From the NCBI GenBank assembly GCA_964583975.1, contig CAZOXU010000002.1, positions 155,709-219,708 on the forward strand: 64,000 nucleotides of DNA. Reading direction: 5' to 3'. A program made the position numbers and the translations under genes. This document shows, piece after piece, positions 2,169 to 64,000 of the stretch (positions within the stretch are counted from its first letter, which is position 1; every line of letters starts with the position of its first letter). Source of the DNA: an uncultured Planctomycetales bacterium. GTDB taxonomy: Bacteria; Omnitrophota; Gorgyraeia; Zapsychrales; Fredricksoniimonadaceae. The notes under the pieces were generated by a model. It searched no databases, had not been told where the DNA came from, and was given only the letters and a program-made list of their open reading frames with translations.

Positions 2169-2630
2169 TTAATTCGGACATAGCCCTACAAAAACTCCTT
2201 GGGATAAACATTGATTAACACTACCATCAAAATTATAAAGTATAATAATATTATCCCCACTGGTTAGTCCATTAGAACCATTTCCTGTCGCATCAATTTT
2301 CACAATATTAATCAGCCACCCAAAATCAACAGCCATAGTCGCATAAGTAGCTGAAGCACTCGTACCTACATATCCACATTTAGCCGTCAAGTCCATCCAA
2401 GTACCTTCATGAGCATGAGCTTGAACACAAGGCAATGTTTGATCTTTTATATTTTTTATAGTCAACATTACTTCTGCCGCCTTACTTTTATTAATCATTG
2501 AGAAATAAGCAGGCACAGCAATGGCAGCTAACACACCAAGAATGATCAAGACAACGATCAATTCAATTAAAGTAAAAGCTTTTCGTTGTTTAAAGATTCT
2601 CATCCTGTTCCTTAATTCATCAATTTCCAC
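2169..2630 (-). CDS. type IV pilin-like protein, paralog 2
   Basis: ..RKA|FTLIELIVVLIILGVLAAIAVP prepilin motif (Ala at -1). C-terminus GLTSGDNIIILYNFDGSVNQCLSQGVFVGLCPN is nearly identical in pattern to pilin 1. A possible internal start MRIFKQRKA (2603) would remove the overlap with pepF. Confidence 0.75.
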   Translation of the reverse strand: MEIDELRNRMRIFKQRKAFTLIELIVVLIILGVLAAIAVPAYFSMINKSKAAEVMLTIKNIKDQTLPCVQAHAHEGTWMDLTAKCGYVGTSASATYATMAVDFGWLINIVKIDATGNGSNGLTSGDNIIILYNFDGSVNQCLSQGVFVGLCPN

Positions 2631-7997: not shown

Positions 7998-8056
7998 AAG
8001 AAAAAACCCCTGCCATCATCTTTCAGACAAACAGCAGGGGTTTCATAATCCTTGAA

Positions 8057-8470
8057 TTAACTCGATTTTTTTCTTTGTTTATACTTAACCGTAGGTGCAT
8101 CCTGCCATAAGTGTTCTAAACCATAAAACTCTCTGGCATTGGGTTCAAAAACATGGGCTACCACATCTCCCATATCCAAAAGAATCCAAGCACCCATACC
8201 TTCAGCTGGACTACCTGAATCTAACCCCTTAATGCTACGATTAGAATGAGCTTTTATTCCAAAATCGGTCAATCCTTCAGTTACACCTTCTGCAATAGCC
8301 TTGACCTGCCTATCAGAAGTTCCTGTGGAAAGAACAAAATAATCACAAAAATTGACCAAACCCTTCATATCAAGAATAACAATATCCTGGGCCTTTTTAT
8401 CATTGGCCAATTGAGCAATCTTATTAGCTAATTGTTTGGAAGTTAATGCTTTACTTCGGATAGAAACCAC
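8057..8470 (-). CDS. rsfS: ribosomal silencing factor RsfS (Iojap)
   Basis: 137 aa. Iojap-like core (DIVILDMKGLVNFCDYFVLSTGTSDRQVKAIAEGV). Confidence 0.8.
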   Translation of the reverse strand: MVSIRSKALTSKQLANKIAQLANDKKAQDIVILDMKGLVNFCDYFVLSTGTSDRQVKAIAEGVTEGLTDFGIKAHSNRSIKGLDSGSPAEGMGAWILLDMGDVVAHVFEPNAREFYGLEHLWQDAPTVKYKQRKKSS

Positions 8471-8476
8471 TCCCGC

Positions 8477-8650
8477 TTATTTCTTTTTTAGTTTAGCAGC
8501 TTGATCTTTGCTTAATACGCGCCAGCATTCGTGTGTGCCTTTAGGGGATTTGGCAACAGCAAAAAAACGTCCACTCTTTTCTTTCACTGAATAATCTGCT
8601 GTTTCAAACTTACCTTTAGTTTTAACATCATAAAAAGATAATTTCTCCAT
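8477..8650 (-). CDS. small basic hypothetical protein (57 aa), not in ORF track
   Basis: Strong RBS-ATG context AAGGAGGATTTGATG on the minus strand. Translation is MEKLSFYDVKTKGKFETADYSVKEKSGRFFAVAKSPKGTHECWRVLSKDQAAKLKKK*. It fills the rsfS-yraN gap. Confidence 0.45.
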   Translation of the reverse strand: MEKLSFYDVKTKGKFETADYSVKEKSGRFFAVAKSPKGTHECWRVLSKDQAAKLKKK

Positions 8651-8716
8651 CAAATCCTCCTTAAAAAAGATTGGTTATTAAATTTGAGTTGAGTGTAAAG
8701 GATAAAAAATACTTTG

Positions 8717-9094
8717 TCAATGACTTAAATAGGTTAAATCAAAGGCGCTGATAATATGTTTAAGCTGGGGCTGGTCAACAGAATCAAAATTGATGGAAAC
8801 AACATCAAAACGGGACATAACCTCAATTGTCTTAAATTTATATTTCAAATAACATAAAGCTAGTCTAACCATCCTAAGCTGTTTAGTCGAACCAACAGCT
8901 TCAAAAGGAGCCCCAAACTGGCTAGATTTCCTGGTTTTGACCTCAATAAAGCAAATAACCTTACCTTCCTGAGCTATCAAATCGATTTCGCCTAATTTGT
9001 TGCGAAAATTTCTTTCAAGAATTCTATATCCCTTGCTCTGTAAGTATTTACAGGTAAGCTCTTCTCCTAATCTGCCTAAAGATTGATTATTCAT
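8717..9094 (-). CDS. yraN: YraN/UPF0102 family predicted endonuclease
   Basis: 125 aa. N-terminus GRLGEELTCKYLQSKGYRILERNFRNKLGEIDLIA is the UPF0102 signature. Overlaps the upstream gene by 4 nt. Confidence 0.8.
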   Translation of the reverse strand: MNNQSLGRLGEELTCKYLQSKGYRILERNFRNKLGEIDLIAQEGKVICFIEVKTRKSSQFGAPFEAVGSTKQLRMVRLALCYLKYKFKTIEVMSRFDVVSINFDSVDQPQLKHIISAFDLTYLSH

Positions 9095-10341
9095 GGATTT
9101 AACTTGAAAATCCCTTTCTCTTGTTGGGTTTTGGATTCTTCCACAATCTCAGCTAGCATTTTGAGCCTGCGACTGTCAGCTTCATTAAGAATAGAATGCA
9201 TACTTTGAGCATATTGACTCAAGCGCTCCCTTTCTTCTTTGAGTACTCGTATCTCATTAAAAACATAGTCTTGGGAACCTTTGAGCAAGGTCTTATACCC
9301 AGGCTCAATCGCTGGATGAAGCATCACCTTATCTAACATCTGAGAAGCTTTTAAATACTGATCAATAGTCTTTAAATAAGCTAAACTCGAGGCTATCTTT
9401 TGAACTGCTAAATACCCCGTTGTCTGATCAAACATGGCGATATTCTTCACTTGAGCTTCAGTCAGAGGCACACCAAATACCGAAAACATTGATAGCTGTT
9501 GCGCATTGACTTCTCTATTAATCTTGTAATCATCCACTATTTGAGTCAAAGTTGATCCAAAATCCTGCCGATACTGGGCAATAAGCTCCCTACTTTCTAA
9601 TCGAGGCCCATAGATATTCACTGAATCGTTACTAACTGTCACCTTAGGTATAATTTGATTAATGATGGTTAAATCTTCGGAATTTTGGTTAACACGATTC
9701 AAAACCTTGCCCGTCACATTGACATTGCCAGAAATATTAAAATTACCGTTCTCAGGATCTTCCAAAGAGGCATAAGGAGTGGAAAAACTACCTTCATGTA
9801 GATAGTCCAAACAATATTCAAAAGCTTGATCTATATCCTCTCTGCCAGAAGTCATGGAGTTCTTTAAACAGTCTAAAATAGCTTGTTTACGAAGTTTAAC
9901 TAAAGGGTCATCCACATTTTTTTCTAAATCTTCGCATTGCTGATAGCGCCTGTTTAATTTTAAGTTTCCTACTGTGTTAAGGTGTTTATAAAGATCGGCT
10001 AAGGTTGGAGAACTGTATTGCCAAACTAAAAGTCTGGATGTGGAAAGCTGTGTCATCAAGGTTTCTAATTCCAGATTGTTAAACTCAGGGCGTACCATTA
10101 GATTCTTTAAACTTTCATGAAAATCATACCTATTACAACCCAAAGAAATCCCACTCCTTCTTAATTCATAATTATTCACCGGGGCAGCAAATGCATTGTA
10201 ATCATAACCGTCACGGTAGTAATAACCCCTTTCATCAGCTGATAGAGCTTGATCCATCTGAGTCTGATTCGGAGATTTAGAAAATACATCAGCAAAAGAA
10301 CACGATGGAATAAATAAAATTAGAATTAATAAGAAAATCAC
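9091..10341 (-). CDS. exported TraH-like protein (F-type T4SS pilus-assembly protein family), tentative
   Basis: 416 aa with a signal peptide. The segment RGYYYRDGYDYNAFAAPVNNYELRRSGISLGCNRYD aligns from memory with F TraH AGYATGGSLYARTQVKNVQLISMTLPDINAGCGGID: same 31-aa spacing to GC, then a GC-x3-D motif. C-terminal coiled-coil as in TraH. From recall only; not confirmed by search. Confidence 0.45.
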   Translation of the reverse strand: MIFLLILILFIPSCSFADVFSKSPNQTQMDQALSADERGYYYRDGYDYNAFAAPVNNYELRRSGISLGCNRYDFHESLKNLMVRPEFNNLELETLMTQLSTSRLLVWQYSSPTLADLYKHLNTVGNLKLNRRYQQCEDLEKNVDDPLVKLRKQAILDCLKNSMTSGREDIDQAFEYCLDYLHEGSFSTPYASLEDPENGNFNISGNVNVTGKVLNRVNQNSEDLTIINQIIPKVTVSNDSVNIYGPRLESRELIAQYRQDFGSTLTQIVDDYKINREVNAQQLSMFSVFGVPLTEAQVKNIAMFDQTTGYLAVQKIASSLAYLKTIDQYLKASQMLDKVMLHPAIEPGYKTLLKGSQDYVFNEIRVLKEERERLSQYAQSMHSILNEADSRRLKMLAEIVEESKTQQEKGIFKLNP

Positions 10342-10667
10342 CTAGGCTCCTGTTCCTTCATAACCCGATCAACAGCTTGTTGGGCTTTAATAATCCTGGC
10401 CACCTTTTGTCGTTGCCATAATAAATAAGCCCTAGCATTTTCTGGAGTGGGAGCCTCAAGTAAGGTCAGCATGGCGGAAGGCGGCATATAGTAGGCAACC
10501 TTACCATCGGCTCCTATGGTAGGATCTCTAAAATCAAATTCTTGCTTGGTTTCTGCCTTGGAAGCACCAATCTTACGATCAAAATAATCCAATGAACCCA
10601 TCTTATAGGGGTTGGCAGCATAGCTATTACTGGACATGATCCAAATTAAAATGAAGCAAATCCACAT
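10338..10667 (-). CDS. small exported protein (109 aa), possibly the N-terminal part of a TraF/TrbB-like protein
   Basis: Signal peptide MWICFILIWIMSSNSYA. Overlaps both flanking genes (4 nt and 41 nt). Combined with the next ORF the length is ~260 aa, which is TraF-like. Confidence 0.45.
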   Translation of the reverse strand: MWICFILIWIMSSNSYAANPYKMGSLDYFDRKIGASKAETKQEFDFRDPTIGADGKVAYYMPPSAMLTLLEAPTPENARAYLLWQRQKVARIIKAQQAVDRVMKEQEPR

Positions 10668-11163
10668 AACCCTTTATCCTTTGAGTTTTTCCATGATCCA
10701 TAATGATATAGGTTGGCGTTTGGCCAATTTCATATTTATTGGCCAATGCATTCTTGAAATCTAATGTGTACTCCAGATCTTTAGGAAAACCTCTTCCTTG
10801 GGAGCGGAAATATTCTATAAACTCTTTAACTGTAGACATGACATATACCTGGATAGCCCAATCAGCATGCTTTCTTTTAAGACTTCCTAGATCATGGATG
10901 GCTTTCTTACACCAAGAACATTGCGGATCAATAAACAACAAGATTTTTTTCGTATCAGATTTATTCTGTACGGCACTTACGATAGATTTTTTAGAATTAT
11001 TAGTACAATGTTCGCAGGTCGTCTTTAGAAAAATATCTCTAGAGTTAAAGATGGTTTCTTGGGCCCAGGACAACTCATTTGAGTTCCAATAAACCAAAAT
11101 CCCAAAAATTACCCTAAATACAACAGCTGCGTTGATGCCAGTAAATCCAAACATAATGACCAT
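10627..11163 (-). CDS. thioredoxin-fold thiol:disulfide oxidoreductase (TraF/TrbB/DsbA-like), CxxC active site
   Basis: LLFIDPQCSWCKK is the classic thioredoxin motif. A second CEHC pair lies upstream. N-terminal hydrophobic segment. Confidence 0.6.
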   Translation of the reverse strand: MVIMFGFTGINAAVVFRVIFGILVYWNSNELSWAQETIFNSRDIFLKTTCEHCTNNSKKSIVSAVQNKSDTKKILLFIDPQCSWCKKAIHDLGSLKRKHADWAIQVYVMSTVKEFIEYFRSQGRGFPKDLEYTLDFKNALANKYEIGQTPTYIIMDHGKTQRIKGYVDLLHFNLDHVQ

Positions 11164-12019
11164 CCTTAGATTGCTTACCCTGTTCCAAAAGTGCTGGATT
11201 CTCTCCTATAGGAAAACAAGCAGTCTTTTGGGGAAAAACCATCTGTACCTTATCAATGCGAAGATTGGGCTTGAAATCTAACCTTGATTCAATAACATTA
11301 GCTGAGAAAGTTTCCCCTGCCAGACTTATAGAACGAAGAGCATCTACAATTGAGGCCACAGGCGCACTAGGAGTTATGACAAATCCCTGCCTCGGGTAAA
11401 GCGGCCCCCAATCTTTCATACATTGATCTTCGGCTCCTATAGGTAGATTATGACATTGCCCTCCTATCCGTGCTGCAACTAGACTCTGAGGATGCTTCTT
11501 CTCTATATCTGCTCTTCTCCAGGAAATACTATCTGCTTCGGAAAGATACCGAATCCCCAAGGTCCGATTAGGAATATCTGAGCAAACAGCATCTTCAAAG
11601 ATTTCACCTAATGGATAATCATAAAGGTGGACTTCATTAAATTGCAAATTGCTAGAACTTAAACTTTGAGAAGAACTGCCACTGGTAACCTTTAAATCTT
11701 TAAGACCATTTATCAATTCAAGTTCTTTCTGAGCCACCCGTTTAGTCAGCCCTTCCAAAGGAATCCCATATTCAGCAATGGTGTAATCTCCTGGCATTTT
11801 GACAGTTTCCATAAATAATTCTGGCTGCCAATAACGGATTTTGATCCCAATGGGAAATTCTAGACGTTCTGGTTTGGGACACACCCCTTCAAACCTAATC
11901 TGTAAACATTGAAAGTCTGCTTGGAGGGATAATTCCGTAATACTTTTCTTAAGTGAACTTGTTTCTTCTTGAGCAGCAGCGGGCAATACCAATATAAACA
12001 AAAGAACGAATATTCTCAT
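11114..12019 (-). CDS. exported TraU-like protein (F-type T4SS periplasmic protein family), tentative
   Basis: 301 aa with signal peptide MRIFVLLFILVLPAAAQ and ~9 Cys. From memory, YWQPELFMETVKMPGDY / HLYDYPLGEIF...IRYLSEADSISW / WIYWHQRSCCI align with F TraU GYWEPMALTDVTRSPGCM / HWYKYPLTYWL...IAYLSEIDPTWT / YLMWRKRNCVFL. Not confirmed by search. Confidence 0.5.
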   Translation of the reverse strand: MRIFVLLFILVLPAAAQEETSSLKKSITELSLQADFQCLQIRFEGVCPKPERLEFPIGIKIRYWQPELFMETVKMPGDYTIAEYGIPLEGLTKRVAQKELELINGLKDLKVTSGSSSQSLSSSNLQFNEVHLYDYPLGEIFEDAVCSDIPNRTLGIRYLSEADSISWRRADIEKKHPQSLVAARIGGQCHNLPIGAEDQCMKDWGPLYPRQGFVITPSAPVASIVDALRSISLAGETFSANVIESRLDFKPNLRIDKVQMVFPQKTACFPIGENPALLEQGKQSKDGHYVWIYWHQRSCCI

Positions 12020-12873
12020 AATTTTATAATAAAGGCCAACGCATAAAATGGTGGCACATGGAAATCATTAGATATGGGATGCGAGTGTGGCTGGTCATTG
12101 CCTAAGGTGTTTGTATTCATTGTTCCTGTTAAAGCAGCTTGAGGATCAATTTTGATATAGGTTGGACCACCTGGTTGAAAGGTTGAATCATTAGTATTAA
12201 CTGTAAAATGGTGACTCGGCATTTCAGCAATCGTCAGAATATGGGGACCTGTCTGTCCTCCATGATGATGTGTTACCGAGCCACCTACAGATAGCGGGTT
12301 TCCCATAATATTGCTTTGAGCAATGCCAGCAATATCCTGTCTCGCTCCCACAATAAATTTATCACGAAGATCAGGCGTACCATTACTTCCATCACACAAA
12401 GCCCATCCAGTGGGAATATTAGCAATGGCCCCAGACCAGGCCACAATAACCCCCGAGGCAAGACTTGCTGATCCTAAAGATGAAATTGTACTAGAGACAT
12501 TGCTTCCATTAACTACCGCGGCAGGTAAATGACTAGCTACCAAATTTGCCCATTGTGAAGGAACATCGCTACTTACCGTCATCTGCAGACTGCTACTCGA
12601 AATTAAATACGCATTATGCCAAGGATTAAGCGCGTTCCATTGGGAATTTAAATATCCTTGAGACTGCATAGTTGGAATATCTACAGGCCAAACATGGTGA
12701 TCCACATAATAATTTCTGCCTGCTTCTTGAAGCATGGCCATTTCCAAAGCTGTTTTCTCACCAGCACGAATTTGAACTGAACGAATAGCTACAGGTATTA
12801 TAGAAGATGCTAATACAGCCATAACGCCCATAACAATAGACAGCTCTATAAGAGAAAAAGCACGCTTGTTCAT
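12016..12873 (-). CDS. type IV pilin N-terminal domain fused to a phage tail-collar (MdpB-like) domain
   Basis: N-terminus MNKRA|FSLIELSIVMGVMAVLA (prepilin cleavage/methylation motif, Glu+5). C-terminal half VAWSGAIANIPTGWALCDGSNGTPDLRDKFIVGA ... HHHGG ... PPFYALAFIIKL matches the tail-collar domain signature (G.W..CDG ... PPY.ALAFIMK). Confidence 0.7.
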   Translation of the reverse strand: MNKRAFSLIELSIVMGVMAVLASSIIPVAIRSVQIRAGEKTALEMAMLQEAGRNYYVDHHVWPVDIPTMQSQGYLNSQWNALNPWHNAYLISSSSLQMTVSSDVPSQWANLVASHLPAAVVNGSNVSSTISSLGSASLASGVIVAWSGAIANIPTGWALCDGSNGTPDLRDKFIVGARQDIAGIAQSNIMGNPLSVGGSVTHHHGGQTGPHILTIAEMPSHHFTVNTNDSTFQPGGPTYIKIDPQAALTGTMNTNTLGNDQPHSHPISNDFHVPPFYALAFIIKL

Positions 12874-13012
12874 GGAATTTCTTTCTTAAGGGGGAGATTT
12901 TAAGACTTTATTCGATGGGGAATCGAATGTTTGATGAATAATCAAACTTAATCACATATTACAAATAAAAATAAATTTGTCAACAGCAATTAATTCACAC
13001 ATTGATTTTTAA

Positions 13013-13873
13013 TCAAGCATGTGGATGAGCTTGATCGTAAACCTTCTTGAGCTTATCAGTGGTCAGGTGAGTATAAATCTGTGTTGTAGATAAATTAACA
13101 TGCCCCAAAAGCTCTTGAACTGAGCGCAAATCAGCACCATGATTCAATAAATGAGTAGCAAATGAATGACGAAACATGTGCGGAGTCACATGCTGAACCA
13201 TAGCCTCTTTAAGAACATATTTATTAATAATATTACATACACTTCGTGCTGTTAAACGCGTACCGCTTTTATTGAGAAAAAGTGTCTCTTTTTGATGTGA
13301 TCGCTTTTCTGTATATTCTTTAATGGCTTCAAGAGCTTTATCACCAATGGGAACTAATCTCTCTTTTCTTCCCTTTCCCATGACCCTAATAATATTGCCA
13401 ATAAAATCTACATCTTCAAGATCAAGTCCTACAAGTTCACTAACCCGGATGCCTGTAGAATAAAGCGTTTCAAAAATAGCCTTATCTCTTAGATTACTAA
13501 TTTTATCTGTTGAAGGAGATTCAATAATTTGTGTCGCCTCCTGTTCACTTAAAAAATGTGGCAGGGGTTTGTCTAGCTTGGGTGTTACCAAAAGACTGGC
13601 TGGATTGGTTGAAACAATCTTCTCACGTTGTAAATATCTAAAGAAACTCCTTAAAGAAGAAAGTTTGCGCGCCACCGAACGAGGCTTCAAATTCTTAGTC
13701 CTCATCTGGGCCAAAAATCTTCTTAATGTCGTATAATTTACTTTTTCTAAAGGTACTTCAGTTAAAAAAACTAGGAATTCTTCTAGATCTATTTTGTAAT
13801 TAAGCAAGGTATGCTGGGAATAATTCTTTTCAACTTCTAGATAGGAAAGGAATTTCTCTAGATATTTTTTCAT
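13013..13873 (-). CDS. tyrosine site-specific recombinase XerC/XerD family
   Basis: 286 aa. RHSFATHLLNHGADLRSVQELLGH...TQIYTH catalytic motifs. Confidence 0.85.
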   Translation of the reverse strand: MKKYLEKFLSYLEVEKNYSQHTLLNYKIDLEEFLVFLTEVPLEKVNYTTLRRFLAQMRTKNLKPRSVARKLSSLRSFFRYLQREKIVSTNPASLLVTPKLDKPLPHFLSEQEATQIIESPSTDKISNLRDKAIFETLYSTGIRVSELVGLDLEDVDFIGNIIRVMGKGRKERLVPIGDKALEAIKEYTEKRSHQKETLFLNKSGTRLTARSVCNIINKYVLKEAMVQHVTPHMFRHSFATHLLNHGADLRSVQELLGHVNLSTTQIYTHLTTDKLKKVYDQAHPHA

Positions 13874-17641: not shown

Positions 17642-18005
17642 TGTTTATCCCCTTTTCTTGGGACGGATTAGGAACATCTAAGCTCGCTATTGCCAACCCA
17701 CCTTCACTTGAAAAAATTTGAATATCCAGATGATCGCCTGGATTTGCAGCATAAGGAATGTTTCCTATAAACTTGCTTGGAGAATACTGGCGCGGAAAAG
17801 TAAAATTCTGAGATTCTTTTTGATTATTTGCTATGATCGTAACCAAACGAACATAATACCGATCCATTCGATCTGTTGGATGATCAGCTTCGATATGAAG
17901 TATTTGCGTATCAGGATTATAATCGACTTGAACATTTGTGGCAGGCGATGCCCAGGAGTTTGTATGAATAAAGATTCCCCATATAAGGATTAGCAAAAAT
18001 CTCAT
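17604..18005 (-). CDS. exported hypothetical protein (133 aa)
   Basis: Signal peptide. Overlaps pilD by 4 nt, so co-transcribed. No recognised family. Confidence 0.45.
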   Translation of the reverse strand: MRFLLILIWGIFIHTNSWASPATNVQVDYNPDTQILHIEADHPTDRMDRYYVRLVTIIANNQKESQNFTFPRQYSPSKFIGNIPYAANPGDHLDIQIFSSEGGLAIASLDVPNPSQEKGINNEQETLSIRKRP

Positions 18006-18994
18006 AAACGGTATATACCACCTTCAAGAATCCACTGTATTATAGCATCTCCCCAAAATAAACTTACTAAGGCACCTAAAACTATAAAAGGTCCGTAGGC
18101 AATGGTACTTTCTTTAGTGCGTATTTTTTCAACAATTCCTACTACCCCTCCAAAGAAAGGCGCTATAAAAAACGATAATAAAGCTACTTTCCAGCCCAAA
18201 AAAGCACCTATCATCGCCATAAGCTTAACATCTCCTCCGCCCATACTTTCTTTACGGAAAATAATGTCCCCGATCAAGCCCATCGCATATATTGTACCAC
18301 CTCCAATAATAAACCCAGCCATGGCAGAAGCTAAACCATGAAGATGAATATTCAATAATTGAGGACCTTTGATCCAATGAGCATTAACGACATAGATAAT
18401 TAACAATGAAGTAAGAATTAATATTTTAAGAGGCTTATCATCATACCCCTGCTCTTCCGCCATTAAATGTTTACAGAAGAAAGGATAAATCCATTCTAAA
18501 AATAAACACAAAAGAACTATGAACCCTGCAATAAATCCACCTACCAACAAATTCTCTGAAGAAGAATGAAGACTAGGGATTAAAGTACTTAAAATAAGCC
18601 CTGCCCACATGCCTCCTATGGAAATTTCATCTGGAATAATACGATGTTCAATATCTACAAAGGTAGCAACGATAAAACAAGAAACCATCACCAAATAGGC
18701 TGGTAATATAGAAATGGCGCCATAATAATTATAAAAAACCATAAAAACAATTCCTGTTAAAAGCTCAACCATCCAGTAGCGAAAAGCAATCTTCCCCTTA
18801 CAATGACGGCAACGCCCCCCAAGAAGCAACCAACTAATTAAAGGAATATTATCGTACCAAGCAATCGGTTTTTGACATTTAGGACAATGAGAAGAAGGAA
18901 AAACAACTGACTTTTCTTTAGGAAGTCTTACTATACATACATTCAAAAAACTGCCAATGATAGAACCTAGAATAAAAAAGAATACTGATCCCAT
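18002..18994 (-). CDS. pilD: prepilin peptidase (A24 family, PilD-like)
   Basis: N-terminal CPKCQKP...CRHCKGKI Zn-binding tetracysteine. Polytopic membrane protein. 330 aa. Confidence 0.8.
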   Translation of the reverse strand: MGSVFFFILGSIIGSFLNVCIVRLPKEKSVVFPSSHCPKCQKPIAWYDNIPLISWLLLGGRCRHCKGKIAFRYWMVELLTGIVFMVFYNYYGAISILPAYLVMVSCFIVATFVDIEHRIIPDEISIGGMWAGLILSTLIPSLHSSSENLLVGGFIAGFIVLLCLFLEWIYPFFCKHLMAEEQGYDDKPLKILILTSLLIIYVVNAHWIKGPQLLNIHLHGLASAMAGFIIGGGTIYAMGLIGDIIFRKESMGGGDVKLMAMIGAFLGWKVALLSFFIAPFFGGVVGIVEKIRTKESTIAYGPFIVLGALVSLFWGDAIIQWILEGGIYRL

Positions 18995-56370: not shown

Positions 56371-57753
56371 TTATTTTGAACCGTTAGATTCTTTCAACAT
56401 CTTTTGTCGATCCAAACCTATTTTAAGCATGGCTGCGGCAGGATTTTCCGTGTAGTAACGACAAAACGTAGAGACTTCTTTGATCGTATGGATTTTTCGC
56501 TCATGCAAATTCTTAAGCACATTAGCGCGCATCCATGTTTCCATCATGATATCTCTGGGTGTTTGGCCAATTTCAGCTGCTAAACGATCGCGATAAATGG
56601 TACTTGGCGAATTCGCTATCACTCTTTTTTGCTCATAATTATATTTAAAAATTGGAGACAATAAAACCTTAGCATTCTCCATACCGCTTGTCTCTGAGAC
56701 TTCATCAACCACTCTGAAGATCTTTCCATCAATATGGTAGCGTTTTAAAATAACAAACACATCAATCAGATTAATTAGCATATCAGGCACATTCATGGGT
56801 TCATTGCCTAAACGGATGATCGCTTCCCTAGCGCTTAAAGCATGTATGGTCCCCATACAATATTTACCAATATTCACCGCTGTCATCATATCGCGCGCTT
56901 CTTCCCCACGAACTTCCCCTACAATCACTCTTTCAGGACGCATACGCAAACTATTTTTAACCAAATCAGACAGGCTCAAACTTTCATCAGTTTCAAGGCG
57001 TGAAGTGCTATCATCAAGAAAAGTATTTAATTCAAGGGTATCTTCAATAACAACCAAACGGTCCTTGGCGGGAATAAATCCTAACAAAGCATTCAGCAGG
57101 GTTGTCTTACCTGTTCCTGGACCGCCAGCAATGATTAGGTTTGCCGGCCGGATAGATAAACCTTCCATATATAACCACAGCTGGGCTGCCACCTCATAGC
57201 TCATACTGCCGCCTTGAATTAAATCTATAATACTTAACGGATCAACCTTGGCCTTGGTAATGGTCAATTGAGGACCTAAAGGAGTATCTATGATATTGAC
57301 TCGACCAGTCAAATTGGGAAGCTCAATATTGATGATTTTGTCATAACTACGACGGCCTGAGAATACAATTAATTTGTGAATAAAATTATCTAGCTCTTGT
57401 CGCGAGGTGAATTGTTTATTCGTACAAATAAATCCTTTTTGGGAATGATGAACATAAATGGGCTTGAGCGAATTAATAATAATGTCTTCGATTTCATAAT
57501 CGCACAGCAGCTCTTCAACCACTCCGTAGGAAAGGAAATTTTCAACAAAACGTGATTTATCTAATTCAGCCGAAGAATGTTCCTTTAAAACTTCTTCCAA
57601 AGCACCCATAACCAGAGCTCGCCTGTCAGGATCAGGCAAAAGCAAGGTCATACAACCTCTTAATTTATCTAATACCAATCTTTCTAATTCTAAGTTTTTT
57701 GTCCGCTGCATGATCTTATTATAGCTAATTATTCTTAGGCCGCCATTGATCAA
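56371..57753 (-). CDS. TadA/CpaF/VirB11-superfamily secretion ATPase
   Basis: Walker A IIAGGPGTGKTTLLNALLGFIP, Asp box RLVVIEDTLEL, Walker B/His box RMRPERVIVGEVRGEEA. ~180-aa N-terminal domain. Alternative start MQRTKNLE at 57711. Confidence 0.75.
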   Translation of the reverse strand: MINGGLRIISYNKIMQRTKNLELERLVLDKLRGCMTLLLPDPDRRALVMGALEEVLKEHSSAELDKSRFVENFLSYGVVEELLCDYEIEDIIINSLKPIYVHHSQKGFICTNKQFTSRQELDNFIHKLIVFSGRRSYDKIINIELPNLTGRVNIIDTPLGPQLTITKAKVDPLSIIDLIQGGSMSYEVAAQLWLYMEGLSIRPANLIIAGGPGTGKTTLLNALLGFIPAKDRLVVIEDTLELNTFLDDSTSRLETDESLSLSDLVKNSLRMRPERVIVGEVRGEEARDMMTAVNIGKYCMGTIHALSAREAIIRLGNEPMNVPDMLINLIDVFVILKRYHIDGKIFRVVDEVSETSGMENAKVLLSPIFKYNYEQKRVIANSPSTIYRDRLAAEIGQTPRDIMMETWMRANVLKNLHERKIHTIKEVSTFCRYYTENPAAAMLKIGLDRQKMLKESNGSK

Positions 57754-58264
57754 CGATTTTCTTTATATCTGTGGAAGAATTCCTGGCAATCTGCCCACAG
57801 ATAAAAATTAGTAAAGAAAATGGCCAAACATCCTCTGGAGCAACCAACAAACCTGCTGAAGTGTTTTCCTGTTCTTGTAAATGGCTACCATAGTACTTGA
57901 TGGCTTCATCTAATTTACCTTCAAACACATCCAAAGATGATGTTTTATTATTATATTTCAAAGAAGGCAAACCTACCCCTCTAACTAATAAGAAATTAAT
58001 CATGGAGTCACTGTCTAAATCTAGATGACCATCTGTTTGAAAACCTTTAAATTGAGGAATATTGGGAGGCAAAATCAATGAGGGTTTCTGAACCAACACC
58101 TCACCTTTTCTAACTACGGTATCACCCTCATTAATAGATGAGACTGACAAAAGAATATAAGGAACATGCGTATCAGCAAAAGTCTGTAAAGACATGATGC
58201 GGCTACGAATAATTTGGGTTTCTTTCAAAGCTTTATCAAAAGCTTCTTGAATATCCATAGGCAT
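57725..58264 (-). CDS. hypothetical protein (179 aa) immediately upstream of the secretion ATPase
   Basis: Clean ORF, no recognised motifs. Probably co-transcribed with the ATPase. Confidence 0.4.
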   Translation of the reverse strand: MPMDIQEAFDKALKETQIIRSRIMSLQTFADTHVPYILLSVSSINEGDTVVRKGEVLVQKPSLILPPNIPQFKGFQTDGHLDLDSDSMINFLLVRGVGLPSLKYNNKTSSLDVFEGKLDEAIKYYGSHLQEQENTSAGLLVAPEDVWPFSLLIFICGQIARNSSTDIKKIVDQWRPKNN

Positions 58265-58271
58265 AAAAAAA

Positions 58272-58358
58272 CGGAGAGGCAGAGATTCGAACTCTGGAAG
58301 GGCCTAAACCCTCAACGGTTTTCAAGACCGCCGCTTTCAACCACTCAGCCACCTCTCC
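58272..58358 (-). tRNA. tRNA-Ser (anticodon TGA), long variable arm
   Basis: GGAGAGGTGGCTGAGTGGTTGAAAGC 5' half (Ser-type D-arm). Anticodon arm GCGGT-CTTGAAA-ACCGT. 87 nt, no encoded CCA. Confidence 0.8.
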
Positions 58359-58377
58359 AAAATTGCTTTGTAAGGCG

Positions 58378-59022
58378 TTAATTATACACATCTTCCCTTT
58401 TTAAGGGAATGAAATTTGACCAAAACATTATTTGAGCCACATCTTTAAGTTGAAGGATTTTACATATCTTTTCAAGCCTCACACCCTGACTAAATAAATC
58501 TTTAGCCCTCTCTAAACGTCGCCCTCCTCTGATTACACGTGGCGGCAACATTAACAAAACAATATGCAAAGTCGGATTATCATTTATAAAGCCTATTTTA
58601 ATGCCATATTCTAGTACTTCTCTAAGCAATACAATACTCAAATTAACAACTTTTGGCTTAACGTCTTTAACCAATTCAGCTTTATATCCTTCAATAACAG
58701 CTGGTGTCACTTCAGATAATTTCTTAACCTGAGGATATACTCTAAGCAAGAAATTAGAAAAATGTTGGCAAGTTAATGCGAAGCGCTTGAGACTTTTAGG
58801 TGAAAACTCTCCCTTTGCGTACTCTAGAAATTGCTGAAAAAAGACTCTTACTTCTATTTCACGAACAACTGTTAAAGCTTCTCCCTTAGAAATCTTGGCT
58901 TCAATCTCTTGGAGCATTTTATGCGCTTGTTGTTCATCGCTACCTGCCAACTGAGAATACATTAGGCCACGTGCAAAGAATTCAATGTAATAAACATCAT
59001 CTATTTTACGTATTTGTCCCAT
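58378..59022 (-). pseudogene. truncated tyrosine integrase (arm-binding and SAM-like core-binding domains only; catalytic domain missing)
   Basis: 214 aa. N-terminus IRKIDDVYYIEFFARG (arm-type DNA-binding), then a SAM-like core-binding region (FFQQFLEYAKGEFSPKSLKRFALTCQHFSNFL...VTPAVIEGYKAEL). No RHRY catalytic domain. Sits 20 nt from tRNA-Ser. Confidence 0.55.
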
Positions 59023-61520: not shown

Positions 61521-61599
61521 TGGCGCTCTGCTTCGCTAAAGCTTCGCAGAACCTGTTCCTACGAAGCTCAAATGTAAAAAACATTTGAGCGAAGTAGAA

Positions 61600-61688
61600 C
61601 GGAGAGGGTGAGATTTGAACTCACGGTCCGACTTACGCCGGACAACGGTTTTCGAGACCGCCCTATTCAACCACTCTAGCACCTCTCC
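61600..61688 (-). tRNA. tRNA-Ser (anticodon CGA), long variable arm
   Basis: GGAGAGGTGCTAGAGTGGTTGAATAGGGC 5' half. Anticodon arm GCGGT-CTCGAAA-ACCGT. 89 nt, no encoded CCA. Confidence 0.8.
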
Positions 61689-61722
61689 AAAAAACGAATG
61701 TTTTTTGGATTCCGAGCCTAAC

Positions 61723-61998
61723 TTAAGGCGAGGAATCAAATCTATTAATTTGCACTAAGCTTAAGGATAACTTTTTCTCTCTAGAAAATCTCTTTACTTC
61801 CTTCTCCCGTTTACGTGCTTCATTATAACTACCACAAATCTCTTGATACATCAGCTGCACTGGTCCTCTAAACTTTGTATATCTGCACGCACGTCCTTTA
61901 TTATGCAAACCTACTCGTTTATCTACATCTACAGCTATACCCACATATAAATCACCTGTTCGGCATTCAATGATATAAAGTGACCATTGTTCTTCCAT
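61723..61998 (-). CDS. small GIY-YIG nuclease family protein (YhbQ/UPF0213-like)
   Basis: WSLYIIECRTGDLYVGIAVDVDKRVGLHNKG ... YNEARKREKEVKRFSREKK fits the GIY-YIG core. Start placed at MEEQW (61998). The ORF-track extension to 62070 runs into a GC-rich repeat. Confidence 0.65.
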   Translation of the reverse strand: MEEQWSLYIIECRTGDLYVGIAVDVDKRVGLHNKGRACRYTKFRGPVQLMYQEICGSYNEARKREKEVKRFSREKKLSLSLVQINRFDSSP

Positions 61999-62127
61999 AA
62001 CAGATTTCTCACCAGTTAGATCTCTCGCTTCGCTCGAGACCTTCGCGCCTTCGGCGCTCGGCTCTGCCACCTCTCCAATCCGCCTAAGGCGGATTGGATC
62101 CCGAGCTCAACCTAAAGCGAGGGATCC

Positions 62128-63438: not shown

Positions 63439-64000
63439 TCAATTTATTCTGTGTCCTGGAAGAGATGTGCTTCCTGTCTTTGTAGCATAAGGATTTGAGG
63501 AGCGAGTACTTAAAGAACCACAATTTACATCTGATGGATTCAAACAAGTTTCAAGAGTAACTTTAAATAAGGCCTCTTGCTGACCAGATTGCTGTGCATT
63601 AATTCTTAATTCTGTTACTGGTTTCACTTTTAGAGCGCCCACCAACCTATAATTAGTATCTGTTGAACTACAAGCTCCAGGCTGACTACTCGTTTGATAA
63701 CATGAACTATTAGGAAGACATGTGGCATCAAAGCTTTTTACACAAGAATAAAGATTGCTACTTATGAATGTATAGCAAACCCAACGATGATTTGAATCTG
63801 GAAAAGCTTCATCAAAAGTACCATCAGTTTTCAAATTCTGATGAATACAGAAAGTGTTAGGATCACCCGATGGCAAATCAGCAATGGATATATTCCCAGA
63901 ATTCCAGCTTGCTATGGAGGCCCCTGTTGAATCTATATTTGTTATACTACTAATACCTACAAAACCAGGATTATCTGGTGTCCCATAAGCTTGAAAAGCA
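63439..64000 (-). CDS. Cys-rich exported/surface protein, C-terminal part (N-terminus beyond window)
   Basis: The frame stays open upstream of the track's TTG start all the way to the window edge (manual translation ...AFQAYGTPDNPGFVGISSITNIDSTGASIASWNSGNISIADLPSGDPNTF...). About 12 Cys, Ser/Thr/Asn-rich. Confidence 0.45.
   Translation of the reverse strand, partial: AFQAYGTPDNPGFVGISSITNIDSTGASIASWNSGNISIADLPSGDPNTFCIHQNLKTDGTFDEAFPDSNHRWVCYTFISSNLYSCVKSFDATCLPNSSCYQTSSQPGACSSTDTNYRLVGALKVKPVTELRINAQQSGQQEALFKVTLETCLNPSDVNCGSLSTRSSNPYATKTGSTSLPGHRIN

Follow-up and report, generated by a model that had tools for sequence, protein, structure and literature searches.

A gene block with TraU- and TraH-family proteins in an Omnitrophota chromosome, probably the detached distal part of a type IV secretion and type IVb pilus machine

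The window, meaning the whole 64-kb stretch of DNA that was analysed, contains a minus-strand block of coupled genes running from 12873 to 8717. The rest of the window consists of housekeeping genes, and the chromosomal context originally claimed for the block holds. The features needed for its interpretation are:

12016..12873, minus strand: fusion of a minor pilin with a phage tail-fibre tip (tail-collar) domain, 285 aa, here called pilin-collar (N_methyl, TIGR02532, family profile)
11114..12019, minus strand: TraU-family periplasmic protein, 301 aa, 8 Cys (PF06834, 99.8 bits, cut-off 26.5)
10627..11163, minus strand: exported thioredoxin-fold protein with C-S-W-C, 178 aa (Thioredoxin_2, 34.8 bits)
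10338..10667, minus strand: p109, 109 aa, short TraF-like form with the N-terminal domain alone (alignment to longer orthologues)
9091..10341, minus strand: TraH-family protein, 416 aa, 5 Cys, G-C-x3-D motif (full-length orthology)
8717..9094, minus strand: YraN/UPF0102, predicted endonuclease-fold protein (PF02021, 105 bits; NF009154, 128.6 bits)
12956..12983, minus strand: promoter-like site TTGACA-16-TAATAT, 10/12 match, in the 139 nt that separate xerC from the pilin-collar gene
13013-13873: xerC-like tyrosine recombinase gene, directly upstream of the block
18002..18994, minus strand: PilD-type prepilin peptidase, outside the operon (PF06750, 123.8 bits; PF01478, 66.1 bits)
1535-2630: two prepilins
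56371-57753: T2SSE-family ATPase

Successive genes in the block overlap by 4 nt (pilin-collar/TraU), 50 nt (TraU/thioredoxin), 41 nt (thioredoxin/p109), 4 nt (p109/TraH) and 4 nt (TraH/YraN). The five overlapping reading frames of the original prediction are borne out with exact coordinates, and since the TraH-family gene and yraN (8717-9094) also share 4 nt, the coupled unit has six genes and not five. The TraH-YraN junction is also seen in the L003/L031 lineage and in L012, and is absent from loci of the type found in Ca. Velamenicoccus archaeovorus. Judged only by the overlaps, the six genes would be co-transcribed. The site at 12956..12983 is the top-scoring match within 8000-13200 and may be the operon promoter; it is a weak candidate because the number of promoter-like sites in the region is not above shuffled expectation. 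Export had been proposed for the first five products, and in keeping with this, N-terminal hydrophobic signal-like segments can be read in TraU, the thioredoxin, p109 and the TraH-family protein, and a prepilin motif in pilin-collar.

The proposed fusion of a pilin and a tail-collar domain is real. Pilin-collar scores above cut-off with N_methyl (21.8 bits, cut-off 21.2) and TIGR02532 (22.2 bits, cut-off 16.3), and under the cut-off of 24 with the Collar model (20.1 bits). The family profile matches type IV pilin alpha-1 over residues ~1-70, and over residues ~127-285 it matches phage tail-fibre tips (9qgo, E 4e-22; 9nxk, E 5e-19; 6ov6, E 2e-14), the structures of which were deposited as three chains. 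In an AF2 model the pilin domain (1-130) has pLDDT >90, the best Foldseek matches are 6ov6, 9nxk and C. difficile PilA1, and tblastn gives direct matches to phage tail-fibre genes. Over its C-terminal ~160 residues the family aligns along the full length with the phage tips (PF07484; 9qgo, 9nxk Pseudomonas phage Pa223, 6ov6 Bizionia C24) and shares with them the motifs W-x-L-C-D-G...P-D-L-R, H-x-H and a C-terminal P-P-Y-Y-A-L-x-F-I-M-K; the difference is that the collar domain is carried here on a type IV pilin N-terminal domain, not on a phage fibre shaft. The prepilin motif is KRA/FSLIE (the slash marking the predicted cleavage position), with Ala rather than Gly at -1. Pilin-collar is predicted to be the tip adhesin of a type IVb pilus, and it may form trimers and bind a receptor. 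Its likely processing enzyme is the PilD at 18002-18994.

The TraU assignment was right, with PF06834 well above cut-off. In profile comparisons the TraU family matches F-like TraU (hhalign 98.8%, E 1.3e-16) and GI-type TIGR03756 (99.7%, E 1.2e-25), and a tblastn search with TraU matches annotated traU on at least 5000 plasmids. The TraH-family protein of the window on its own has no match in Pfam and reaches only 29 bits with TIGR03755. Its orthologues, found by full-length blastp (E 1e-41 to 1e-56), confirm the TraH-like call at the level of the family: 10 of the 17 match PF06122 (best E 1.5e-14; 50.2 bits for the V. archaeovorus copy). The family aligns with the GI-type TIGR03755-class protein over 265 columns (hhalign E 9.8e-5) and with F-like TraH (E 1.6e-3).

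In the case of the thioredoxin, described at first as TraF/TrbB-like, membership of the TraF/TrbB thioredoxin superfamily stands, and the specific models stay below cut-off (TraF 16.4 bits, cut-off 23; TrbB 15 bits, cut-off 132). It is paralogous to the thioredoxin domain carried by the TraF-like protein (hhalign 86%, E 5e-6), and its CxxC is retained only in lineages in which that domain has disappeared from the TraF-like protein. By role it is predicted to be TrbB-like, a dedicated thiol-disulfide oxidoreductase. The neighbouring p109 matches no family model; it aligns with the N-terminal ~110 residues of orthologues of 238-256 aa, the thioredoxin-like domain being missing, and the V. archaeovorus orthologue is recognised by PF13728 TraF (31.6 bits, cut-off 23). 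The block of L009 is without a thioredoxin gene.

As originally stated, a search of the 64-kb window finds no TraC/VirB4, coupling protein, relaxase or TraB/K/V; it finds no secretin either. In a synteny comparison of 22 genome loci, nearly all of them from the uncultured phylum Omnitrophota, the operon recurs, and in most of the Omnitrophota loci examined it is contiguous with VirB4/TraC, the block forming the 3' end of a single chromosomal locus of roughly 26 kb. The unsplit order is TraC - small ORF - secretin - ~400 aa - ... - T2SSE - T2SSF - PilS/bundlin pilin - minor pilin (156 aa) - pilin-collar - TraU - thioredoxin - TraF-like - TraH, the pilin-collar gene following directly after the PilS-type pilin and the minor pilin, and the TraC-to-TraH order is seen in L010, L015-L018, L020-L022, L024 and L027. 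In the complete genome of Ca. Velamenicoccus archaeovorus LiM the composite locus lies at CP019384.1, about 603-628.6 kb, and TraC is preceded by TraG_N, a Replic_Relax-like ORF, a coupling protein (T4CP), a VirB2-like pilin, TraL, TraE, TrbI/TraB and TraV. Another locus, L014, reads T4CP-pilin-TraL-TraE-x-TraB-TraV-TraC-x-x-TraU-Trx-TraF-TraH and has no pilus insert. Most of the relatives' loci examined join the block to TraC/VirB4, TraL/E/B/V, TraG_N, sometimes a coupling protein, and a full set of secretin, ATPase, platform and pilin genes. TraW, TrbC and TraN were not detected and the protein at the TraK position has no family match, so this T4SS differs from canonical F. No published description of the composite locus was found.

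In the window's own lineage the locus is split. The block stands alone, adjoining YraN-RsfS-ArgS-RecJ, in the window, L006-L009, L011, L025 and the P0002 contig. In GCA_016201795.1, a MAG of this lineage, the block is on JACQCF010000027.1 and TraC-secretin-T2SSE-T2SSF on JACQCF010000001.1, although contigs of one MAG may be mis-binned. The complementary first half is found in L032, which stops after the minor pilin and continues with kdtA-lpxK. A further TraC contig, L033, comes from SRR12487046, a run that also holds the exact TraU of the window; in tetranucleotide composition it correlates with the window at 0.962, compared with 0.932-0.973 among chunks of the window itself, and the TraC of L033 shares 67-70% identity with the L032 and L035 proteins. 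From the shared run, the matching composition and the sister MAG, we infer that the window's organism has a TraC/secretin partner, with the partner genes probably elsewhere in the chromosome and not adjoining the block.

Most probably, therefore, the block represents the distal module, now detached, of a chromosomally encoded multi-locus machine present in many Omnitrophota genomes, a TraU/TraH-containing (F/G-like) T4SS with type IVb pilus genes embedded between traC and traU. The original prediction was correct in spirit in seeing a chimera of type IV pilus and F-like T4SS parts. Its further reading, a repurposed surface-filament and adhesin maturation module standing alone without a VirB4-type T4SS and relying on the cell's generic type IV pilus apparatus, we consider unlikely. 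It would fit the lack of T4SS core genes within 64 kb, the conservation of the block as a unit in housekeeping synteny on at least seven contigs, and the PilD, the two other prepilins and the T2SSE-family (TadA-like) ATPase, all of which are present in the window as reported; the shortened TraF-like protein and the thioredoxin loss in L009 could also reflect a changed role. However, most of the loci examined have the orthologous block in one run with TraC and the T4SS core, and TraC-secretin-T2SSE-T2SSF is retained in the same-lineage MAG, so a stand-alone VirB4-less module is improbable. The window's ATPase and the operon ATPase are not orthologues (27-33% identical over about 120-146 residues), and TraU and TraH are not known in any capacity other than as T4SS components (PMC7555446).

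A decaying, non-functional remnant, left once the other T4SS genes had been lost or relocated, is more improbable still. The locus is fragmented in this clade, the TraF-like protein is shortened, L009 lacks the thioredoxin, and the block evolves about twice as fast as neighbour genes. Against decay, the genes are intact with start/stop overlaps preserved in at least seven independent contigs, invariant Cys and motif residues are kept, and pN (0.20-0.35 across all block genes) is far below a saturated pS (0.61-0.85); the detached genes are under purifying selection. The short TraF form is also present in the unsplit loci L003 and L010, so the truncation is no sign of decay.

Least credible is the recent arrival of an integrated conjugative or mobile element whose integrase would be the xerC-like recombinase: the gene does lie directly upstream of the block, the nearest characterised TraU and TraH relatives are ICE and plasmid proteins, and a coupling protein occurs in V. 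archaeovorus and L014 and a Replic_Relax-like ORF in V. archaeovorus, but GC is uniform over the window (0.36-0.41), no relaxase, repeats or att-like structure was seen, and in three relatives the recombinase is conserved at 79-80% alongside the neighbouring dprA-topA, a pattern expected of a chromosomal XerC. Further, the order dprA-topA-xerC / block / yraN-rsfS-argS-recJ is kept in genomes with 76-84% identical housekeeping proteins, and the block proteins diverge in parallel (41-66% identical). The possibility raised at the outset, that the rest of such an element lies just outside the window, does not agree with synteny conserved at ~20% housekeeping divergence.

If the block is the distal part of such a machine, the prepilin peptidase would cleave pilin-collar, and the separately encoded secretin/T2SSE/T2SSF machinery would build it into a PilS-type pilus, where the trimeric tail-fibre tip domain may bind a surface receptor on a target cell. 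Cys-rich TraU and TraH would join the periplasmic, outer-membrane-associated assembly and mating-pair-stabilisation group of the T4SS, their disulfides kept correct by the CxxC thioredoxin as by TrbB in plasmid F. The p109 protein would correspond to the N-terminal domain of TraF only, which in plasmid F is the TraH-binding part (PMC7555446, from which the F roles of TraU, TraH, TraF and TrbB are taken). The core T4SS (TraC, TraB, TraV, TraL, TraE, TraG_N) would be supplied in trans from other loci. We infer the physical interactions, tip location, target binding and cargo in this scheme. The machine as a whole may serve conjugation or the contact of the cell with prey or a host.

The T4SS is about equally distant from F-type and GI-type systems. 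With GI-type (MPF_G) ICEs of the ICEHin1056/ICEclc/PAPI-1/SPI-7 class (TIGR03744-03759) the Omnitrophota locus shares the core order coupling protein - pilin-like - TraL-like - TraE-like - TraK-like - TraB-like - lipoprotein - TraC - small ORF - TraU-like - TraH-like, and both have a TraG_N protein, at the start of the Omnitrophota locus and at the end in GI-type. The best family scores of the Omnitrophota TraU and TraH are also with this type (TIGR03756, 62 bits; TIGR03755, 29 bits), far under the NCBIfam cut-offs of 188 and 270. A type IVb PilS/PilV pilus cluster is likewise carried by these ICEs. In Omnitrophota, in contrast, the pilus genes lie within the T4SS operon and not in a separate cluster, two thioredoxin-fold genes stand between TraU and TraH, TraB and TraG_N are nearer to F, and the locus is chromosomal and syntenic, with no integrase, relaxase or att hallmarks seen.

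The likeness to F (MPF_F) lies in TraU/TraF/TrbB/TraH, with PF06834, PF06122 and PF13728 matched by the window protein or its orthologues, in the Cys-rich exported products with a dedicated CxxC thioredoxin, in having two thioredoxin-fold paralogues per system, one of them redox-active and the other redox-inactive (compare TrbB and TraF), and in the TraL, TraE, TraV, TraB/TrbI and TraC_F_IV of the relatives. Apart from the undetected TraW, TrbC and TraN, the Omnitrophota system differs from F in a TraU only about 25% identical to F-like TraU and in nearly adjacent TraU and TraH, which in F are separated by trbC, traN, traF, trbB and others; in the window, the TraF-like protein is without a thioredoxin domain and the genes are apart from the rest of the system.

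A third comparison is the IncI thin pilus (R64, TP114), in which a type IVb pilus (PilS-type major pilin, secretin, one ATPase, platform protein) is encoded with a conjugation-type T4SS, as in Omnitrophota. In R64, which has such a pilus together with its T4SS, the variable C-terminal part of a minor pilin is thought to select the target cell. The same is proposed for TP114 (PMC9045228). The IncI partner is an I-type T4SS, whereas that of Omnitrophota is F/G-like, and the IncI pil genes make up a separate, plasmid-borne operon. In Omnitrophota the ATPase bears no particular resemblance to plasmid PilQ; the plasmid proteins that it matches best are generic GspE/PulE. A shufflon switches the specificity of PilV, which is no tail-collar protein.

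All five open reading frames of the original prediction are found on the minus strand at exactly the coordinates it gave, and they are followed by a sixth gene, yraN. In order of transcription, this block consists of:

12016-12873, minus strand: prepilin/tail-collar fusion (pilin-collar), 285 aa
11114-12019, minus strand: TraU, 301 aa, 8 Cys
10627-11163, minus strand: thioredoxin with C-S-W-C, 178 aa
10338-10667, minus strand: exported protein p109, 109 aa
9091-10341, minus strand: TraH-family protein, 416 aa, 5 Cys
8717-9094, minus strand: yraN (UPF0102, nuclease fold), sixth gene, 4-nt overlap with the traH stop codon

The first five genes overlap successively by 4, 50, 41 and 4 nt. The block is separated from xerC upstream by 139 nt and from rsfS downstream by 246 nt. 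Inside the latter gap lies a conserved, lysine-rich ORF of 58 aa (8477-8653, minus strand; MMEKLSFYDVKTKGKFETADYSVKEKSGRFFAVAKSPKGTHECWRVLSKDQAAKLKKK), which is ~86% identical, as estimated by eye, to 13344-13517 of the homologous locus L006; a 57-aa gene is called at this position in the homologous locus L007 and on the P0002 contig, from a relative with a 78% identical TraU. Promoter and terminator scans of the block region gave no signal above chance. Two plus-strand ORFs (10739-11092 and 12323-12532) were discarded as non-genes, the apparent conservation of the second being a shadow of the conserved collar domain on the opposite strand. The 4-nt overlap of yraN with traH is shared by the window lineage and the L003/L031 lineage (L003 12098-12463), and yraN likewise overlaps traH in L012 (12262-12648). 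In loci of the type found in Candidatus Velamenicoccus archaeovorus, traH is followed by hsdM (a type I methylase) in place of yraN.

The identification of TraU is borne out by PF06834, which scores 99.8 bits against a cut-off of 26.5, with residues 45-300 aligned to profile positions 39-304 of 306. The TraU family also matches F-like TraU (hhalign 98.8%), the F-like comparison proteins being taken from an F-like E. coli plasmid. Both NCBIfam equivalogs stay below cut-off, with 34.3 vs 298 bits for PRK13737 (F TraU) and 62.1 vs 188 bits for TIGR03756 (ICE type). Going by sequence, the protein is a member of the superfamily that belongs to neither of these curated subfamilies. Its relatives form a small set in a collection of 5.8 billion proteins, and PF06834 is found in all of them. 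Neither the TraU nor the TraH profile found a match in sequence searches of the PDB. The TraH-like call needs its orthologues: the window protein itself has no Pfam match, PF06122 included (E up to 1), and reaches 29 bits with TIGR03755 (ICE family), but homology is established through relatives. PF06122 is matched by 10 of the 17 full-length orthologues of the 416-aa protein (best E 1.5e-14), the copy in V. archaeovorus reaches 50.2 vs 25 bits, and the window protein aligns with the matching orthologues over its full length. The TraH family profile matches a GI-type ICE TraH-like protein (E 9.8e-5 across 265 columns) and, more weakly, F-like TraH (E 1.6e-3); the G-C-x3-D motif pointed out in the original prediction does fall within the latter alignment.

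The thioredoxin had been described as TraF/TrbB-like. The CxxC and the N-terminal hydrophobic segment are present (C-S-W-C at residues 81-84, with C-[SP]-W-C conserved across the window lineage), but the family models missed their cut-offs (PF13728 TraF 16.4 vs 23 bits; TIGR02738 TrbB 15 vs 132 bits), and the sole above-threshold match is to the generic Thioredoxin_2 (34.8 bits). Against TrbB of the F-like plasmid, hhalign gives E 0.028, and the TraF-like family reaches E 1.7e-3 with F-like TraF in a single-sequence comparison. Because these single-sequence F-like matches are weak, the window proteins are not called strict TraF or TrbB orthologues. The short protein p109 has no Pfam or NCBIfam match. 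It aligns to the N-terminal ~110 residues of TraF-family orthologues of 238-256 aa and does not have the C-terminal thioredoxin-like domain that these long orthologues carry; the long orthologue of V. archaeovorus matches PF13728 with 31.6 vs 23 bits. In plasmid F, the TraH-binding part of TraF is its N-terminal domain (PMC7555446), and p109, which aligns to this domain, therefore keeps that part. The traH gene is overlapped by that of p109. By hhalign, the two families of thioredoxin-fold proteins are paralogous, and their motifs are complementary. In the window and in lineages of the p109 type, a truncated TraF-like protein goes with a first thioredoxin that has C-[SP]-W-C; in five loci (L014, L016-L018, L024) a full-length TraF-like protein with C-P-x-C goes with a first thioredoxin whose motif is degenerate; and in L009 the first thioredoxin is lost entirely. 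These complementary patterns mirror the F pair, in which TrbB has CxxC and TraF does not.

The pilin part of the fusion protein is confirmed by two models, PF07963 N_methyl (21.8 vs 21.2 bits) and TIGR02532 (22.2 vs 16.3 bits), both above cut-off. The cleavage site is followed by F-S-L-I-E; most orthologues have Gly at position -1, where the window protein has Ala. In the family profile, the first ~70 residues correspond to the alpha-1 helices of type IV pilins. An AF2 model, for which the alignment was assembled from search hits, shows a confident pilin domain with a helix at 8-59 (pLDDT above 90). For the tail-collar part, the window protein alone does not reach the PF07484 cut-off (20.1 vs 24 bits), but the family profile matches solved fibres: its last ~160 residues match three-chain phage tail-fibre tip entries (9qgo E 4.4e-22, 9nxk E 4.5e-19, 6ov6 E 2.4e-14). 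The window protein, which belongs to a large family, also matches phage tail-fibre genes directly (tblastn, down to E 9e-14). In the AF2 monomer the collar domain is poorly folded, which explains the low Foldseek TM-scores; the fold matches agree with the profile matches. Among phages, one collar match is a tail protein of Caudoviricetes sp. vir515 (BK063672.1; 29% identity, E 2e-9), aligned to residues 144-285 (window 12016-12444). The recorded host of vir515 is Methanosarcinales, and V. archaeovorus attacks methanogenic archaea.

It had been claimed that the core of a type IV secretion system (T4SS) is absent, and the 64-kb window indeed contains no VirB4, coupling protein, relaxase or TraB/K/V; neither does it contain a secretin, T2SSF or PilS-type pilin. 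The proposal that the block is a stand-alone, VirB4-less module did not survive comparison with relatives. A scan of one genome per species gave 22 TraU loci, nearly all labelled Candidatus Omnitrophota and one of them from Ca. Velamenicoccus archaeovorus LiM, whose genome is complete. A synteny map made by blastp and the gene tables of the contigs place the five genes, in most of these genomes, at the 3' end of a long cluster of co-directional genes. The V. archaeovorus cluster (CP019384.1, about 603-628.6 kb) runs as follows:

First part: TraG_N, Replic_Relax-like ORF, TraD/TraG-type coupling protein, VirB2/TrbC-like pilin, TraL, TraE
Next: 248-aa ORF (TraK position), TrbI/TraB, TraV, TraC, 150-aa ORF, secretin
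After the secretin: four small or unassigned ORFs, T2SSE, T2SSF, PilS-type (type IVb) major pilin
Then: 156-aa minor pilin, pilin-collar, inserted toxin-antitoxin pair (other strand)
3' end: TraU, thioredoxin, 243-aa TraF-family protein, TraH

The relatives thus encode TraL, E, B, V, C, U, F, H and TraG_N; TraW, TrbC and TraN were not detected in them, and the protein at the TraK position has no family match. They also have a type IVb pilus set in one cluster, with secretin (128 bits), a single T2SSE, T2SSF, PilS-type pilin (PF08805 26.3 vs 22 bits) and minor pilins. Locus L014 has the T4SS genes in V. archaeovorus order and no pilus insert. TraC homologues of this type number 232 matches at E up to 1e-20, and those with a named source all come from Omnitrophota/Omnitrophica. 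In L030, the V. archaeovorus locus, a 254-aa ORF between TraG_N and the coupling protein (2113-2877) scores 24.2 vs 25.3 bits with Replic_Relax (PF13814) and 26.7 bits with MobC_subf, both just under threshold; the protein may be a partner of the T4SS in DNA processing. The toxin-antitoxin pair (GNAT toxin and TacA1 antitoxin, L030 21646-22516, opposite strand) splits the junction between the pilin-collar gene and traU, which in the window is uninterrupted. In L033 and L031, TraC likewise has toxin-antitoxin genes as flanking neighbours.

The window is not alone in having the block without the rest of the cluster: the same is seen in L006/L007, L008, L009, L011, L025 and the P0002 contig. The genes yraN-rsfS-argS-recJ come after the split-off block in every case and dprA-topA-xerC before it in most, and the block occupies the same site in all close relatives examined. 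As an example, in GCA_016201795.1 the block is found on JACQCF010000027.1 (L009) and the half from TraC to T2SSF on JACQCF010000001.1 (L035), in the order TraC, 146 aa, secretin, 404 aa, 166 aa, 182 aa, T2SSE, T2SSF. Here TraC has no preceding TraV or TraB, and this genome must therefore have at least three loci. In another case, L032, the first half (TraG_N-like to minor pilin) runs into kdtA-lpxK, without the TraU block. A further break is found in L034, where the SerRS is about 80% identical to that of the window. The break points are:

L034 12498-16043: after the secretin and two ORFs
L035 2250-6763: before TraC
L032 19843-22532: after the minor pilin

This suggests that the composite locus has been repeatedly fragmented in this clade. 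A TraC contig, L033, comes from sequencing run SRR12487046, as does a contig identical to the window TraU. Its tetranucleotide composition fits the window as well as the window fits itself, and its TraC falls together with the TraC proteins of L032 and L035, at 67-72% identity; this is indirect evidence of a TraC partner in the window's own organism. In L034 the T4SS half lies directly upstream of a response regulator and SerRS, and the window too has SerRS, near its right edge, so the possibility was examined that the missing half begins just past coordinate 64000. This seems not to be the case, as the ORF at the edge is an unrelated Cys-rich exported protein and a 145-aa ORF does not match either. 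Taken together, the block is probably a module split off from a T4SS/pilus system with dispersed genes. It is one piece of a larger variant of known systems, apparently not described before, and not a new VirB4-less system. The alternative of an integrated conjugative element finds no relaxase, coupling protein or integrase in the window except the conserved xerC, and no att hallmarks were seen for the block in its conserved chromosomal synteny.

The detached module is very unlikely to be in decay. In split-locus genomes, housekeeping proteins are 76-84% identical to those of the window and block proteins 41-66%, the block genes evolving about twice as fast as their neighbours. For all block genes pN is 0.20-0.35 and pS, which is saturated, 0.61-0.85, so that the dN/dS estimates rest on saturated pairs; pN lies far below pS, and the block genes are therefore constrained.

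Among known systems, the F-type T4SS (MPF_F) differs in that, of its set, the window lacks all but the U, F-like and H components. In the GI-type ICE class (MPF_G) the gene order is similar, but the TIGR03756 and TIGR03755 scores are far under the cut-offs and there are no ICE hallmarks. TraU and TraH are nearer to GI-type families, TraB and TraG_N nearer to F, and TraC is a tie; the Omnitrophota T4SS is about equally distant from both types. No protein reached the curated equivalog cut-offs of either class. Because of this equidistance, the missed cut-offs and the failure to find TraW, TrbC and TraN, the system was filed as a separate branch of TraU/TraH-containing T4SSs and not under MPF_F or MPF_G. 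IncI plasmids likewise couple a conjugation-type T4SS to a type IVb pilus with a specificity-determining minor pilin, and islands of the PAPI-1 and SPI-7 type have the same T4SS and type IVb pilus coupling. Against a plasmid collection, the operon ATPase gave generic GspE/PulE matches only. What is new is that the pilus genes are inserted within the T4SS operon, that the adhesin is a phage tail-fibre tip domain, that the locus recurs chromosomally and in synteny across many genomes of an uncultured phylum, and that the window's lineage has it scattered, with yraN coupled to the final module.

In plasmid F, pilus dynamics and mating-pair stabilisation depend on a periplasmic group, associated with the outer membrane, that is formed by TraU, TraH and TraF (PMC7555446). 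By analogy, TraU, TraH and the TraF-like protein would have the same group role here, the thioredoxin would be their dedicated disulfide isomerase, and p109 would dock on TraH. From the example of IncI thin pili and phage fibres, the pilin-collar protein would sit at the tip of the PilS-type pilus and bind a receptor on the target cell, with the core machine presumably supplied in trans. The whole system could serve conjugation among Omnitrophota, DNA release or uptake, or delivery into prey or hosts. DNA transfer fits the coupling protein and Replic_Relax-like ORF in V. archaeovorus and the coupling protein in L014. A non-conjugative use fits the absence of both beside the cluster in L031, L032 and L034; it also fits with the locus being conserved in the chromosome and with V. 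archaeovorus living as a predator (PMC10066038, PMC12583861, PMC13153191). A tentative and rather unlikely reading is that of a vertically inherited, domesticated injection machine rather than conjugation, in which the phage-tipped type IVb pilus picks out and holds the host or prey and the F/G-like T4SS delivers effectors or nucleic acids. If true, a so far unexplained observation reported for Ca. Velamenicoccus archaeovorus, that predator RNA passes into dead Methanothrix cells (PMC13153191), would have a candidate route; the window would be evidence that such a machine can withstand being scattered over several chromosomal loci while its final module is coupled to a nuclease-fold gene, yraN.

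Full-text searches of literature other than Kizina et al. 2022 (AEM), the original paper on V. archaeovorus, returned no description of the TraC/TraU/TraH system. The survey of Seymour et al. 2023 (PMC10066038) covers Tad and type IVa pili, which are at other loci (Tad at CP019384.1 12382-29832), and two Omnitrophota genome preprints from 2026 mention only generic T2SS/T4P flanks and a plasmid-borne T4SS. In the existing NCBI annotation, the proteins appear as 'TraC family protein' and 'tail fiber protein'. Omnitrophota are widespread, uncultured and ultra-small, and are thought to be epibionts, parasites or predators. A conserved chromosomal T4SS of conjugation type with a type IVb pilus in the same operon and a phage-tipped pilin is a testable candidate for their contact and transfer apparatus, and it adds a deep branch to the TraU/TraH-containing T4SS classes. 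It also calls for caution in annotation, as lone TraU/TraH/thioredoxin blocks among housekeeping genes are best read as parts of dispersed systems and not as new stand-alone ones.

The remaining window, uniform in GC content, is housekeeping: recJ, argS, rsfS, xerC, topA, dprA, aroK, pilD, aroE, leuA and ilvC, then pfk, metK, ahcY, PTS genes, frr, pyrH, tsf, rpsB, dnaE, guaA and guaB, and also groEL, coaX, uvrB, folP, ftsH, tilS, serS and six tRNAs. Two prepilin genes (1535-1975 and 2169-2630, minus strand; 146 and 153 aa; N_methyl 37 and 33 bits) have a SpoU methylase gene on one side and an M3 peptidase gene on the other and stand apart from any pilus machinery. An orphan T2SSE-family ATPase (56371-57753, minus strand, 460 aa), with neither T2SSF nor secretin nearby, overlaps a 179-aa ORF (57725-58264, minus strand) that has no family match. 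It was rejected as an orthologue of the composite-operon ATPase, as identity is only 27-33% over about 120-146 residues. The Cys-rich, apparently exported protein at 63439-64000 (minus strand) runs past the window end, has no family match and does not resemble the ORFs located before SerRS in L034. A 214-aa ORF (58378-59022, minus strand) with a weak integrase N-terminal SAM-like domain (E 3e-4) adjoins tRNA-Ser 58271-58359, and a GIY-YIG nuclease gene (61723-62070, minus strand) adjoins tRNA-Ser 61599-61689; both may be mobile-element remnants.
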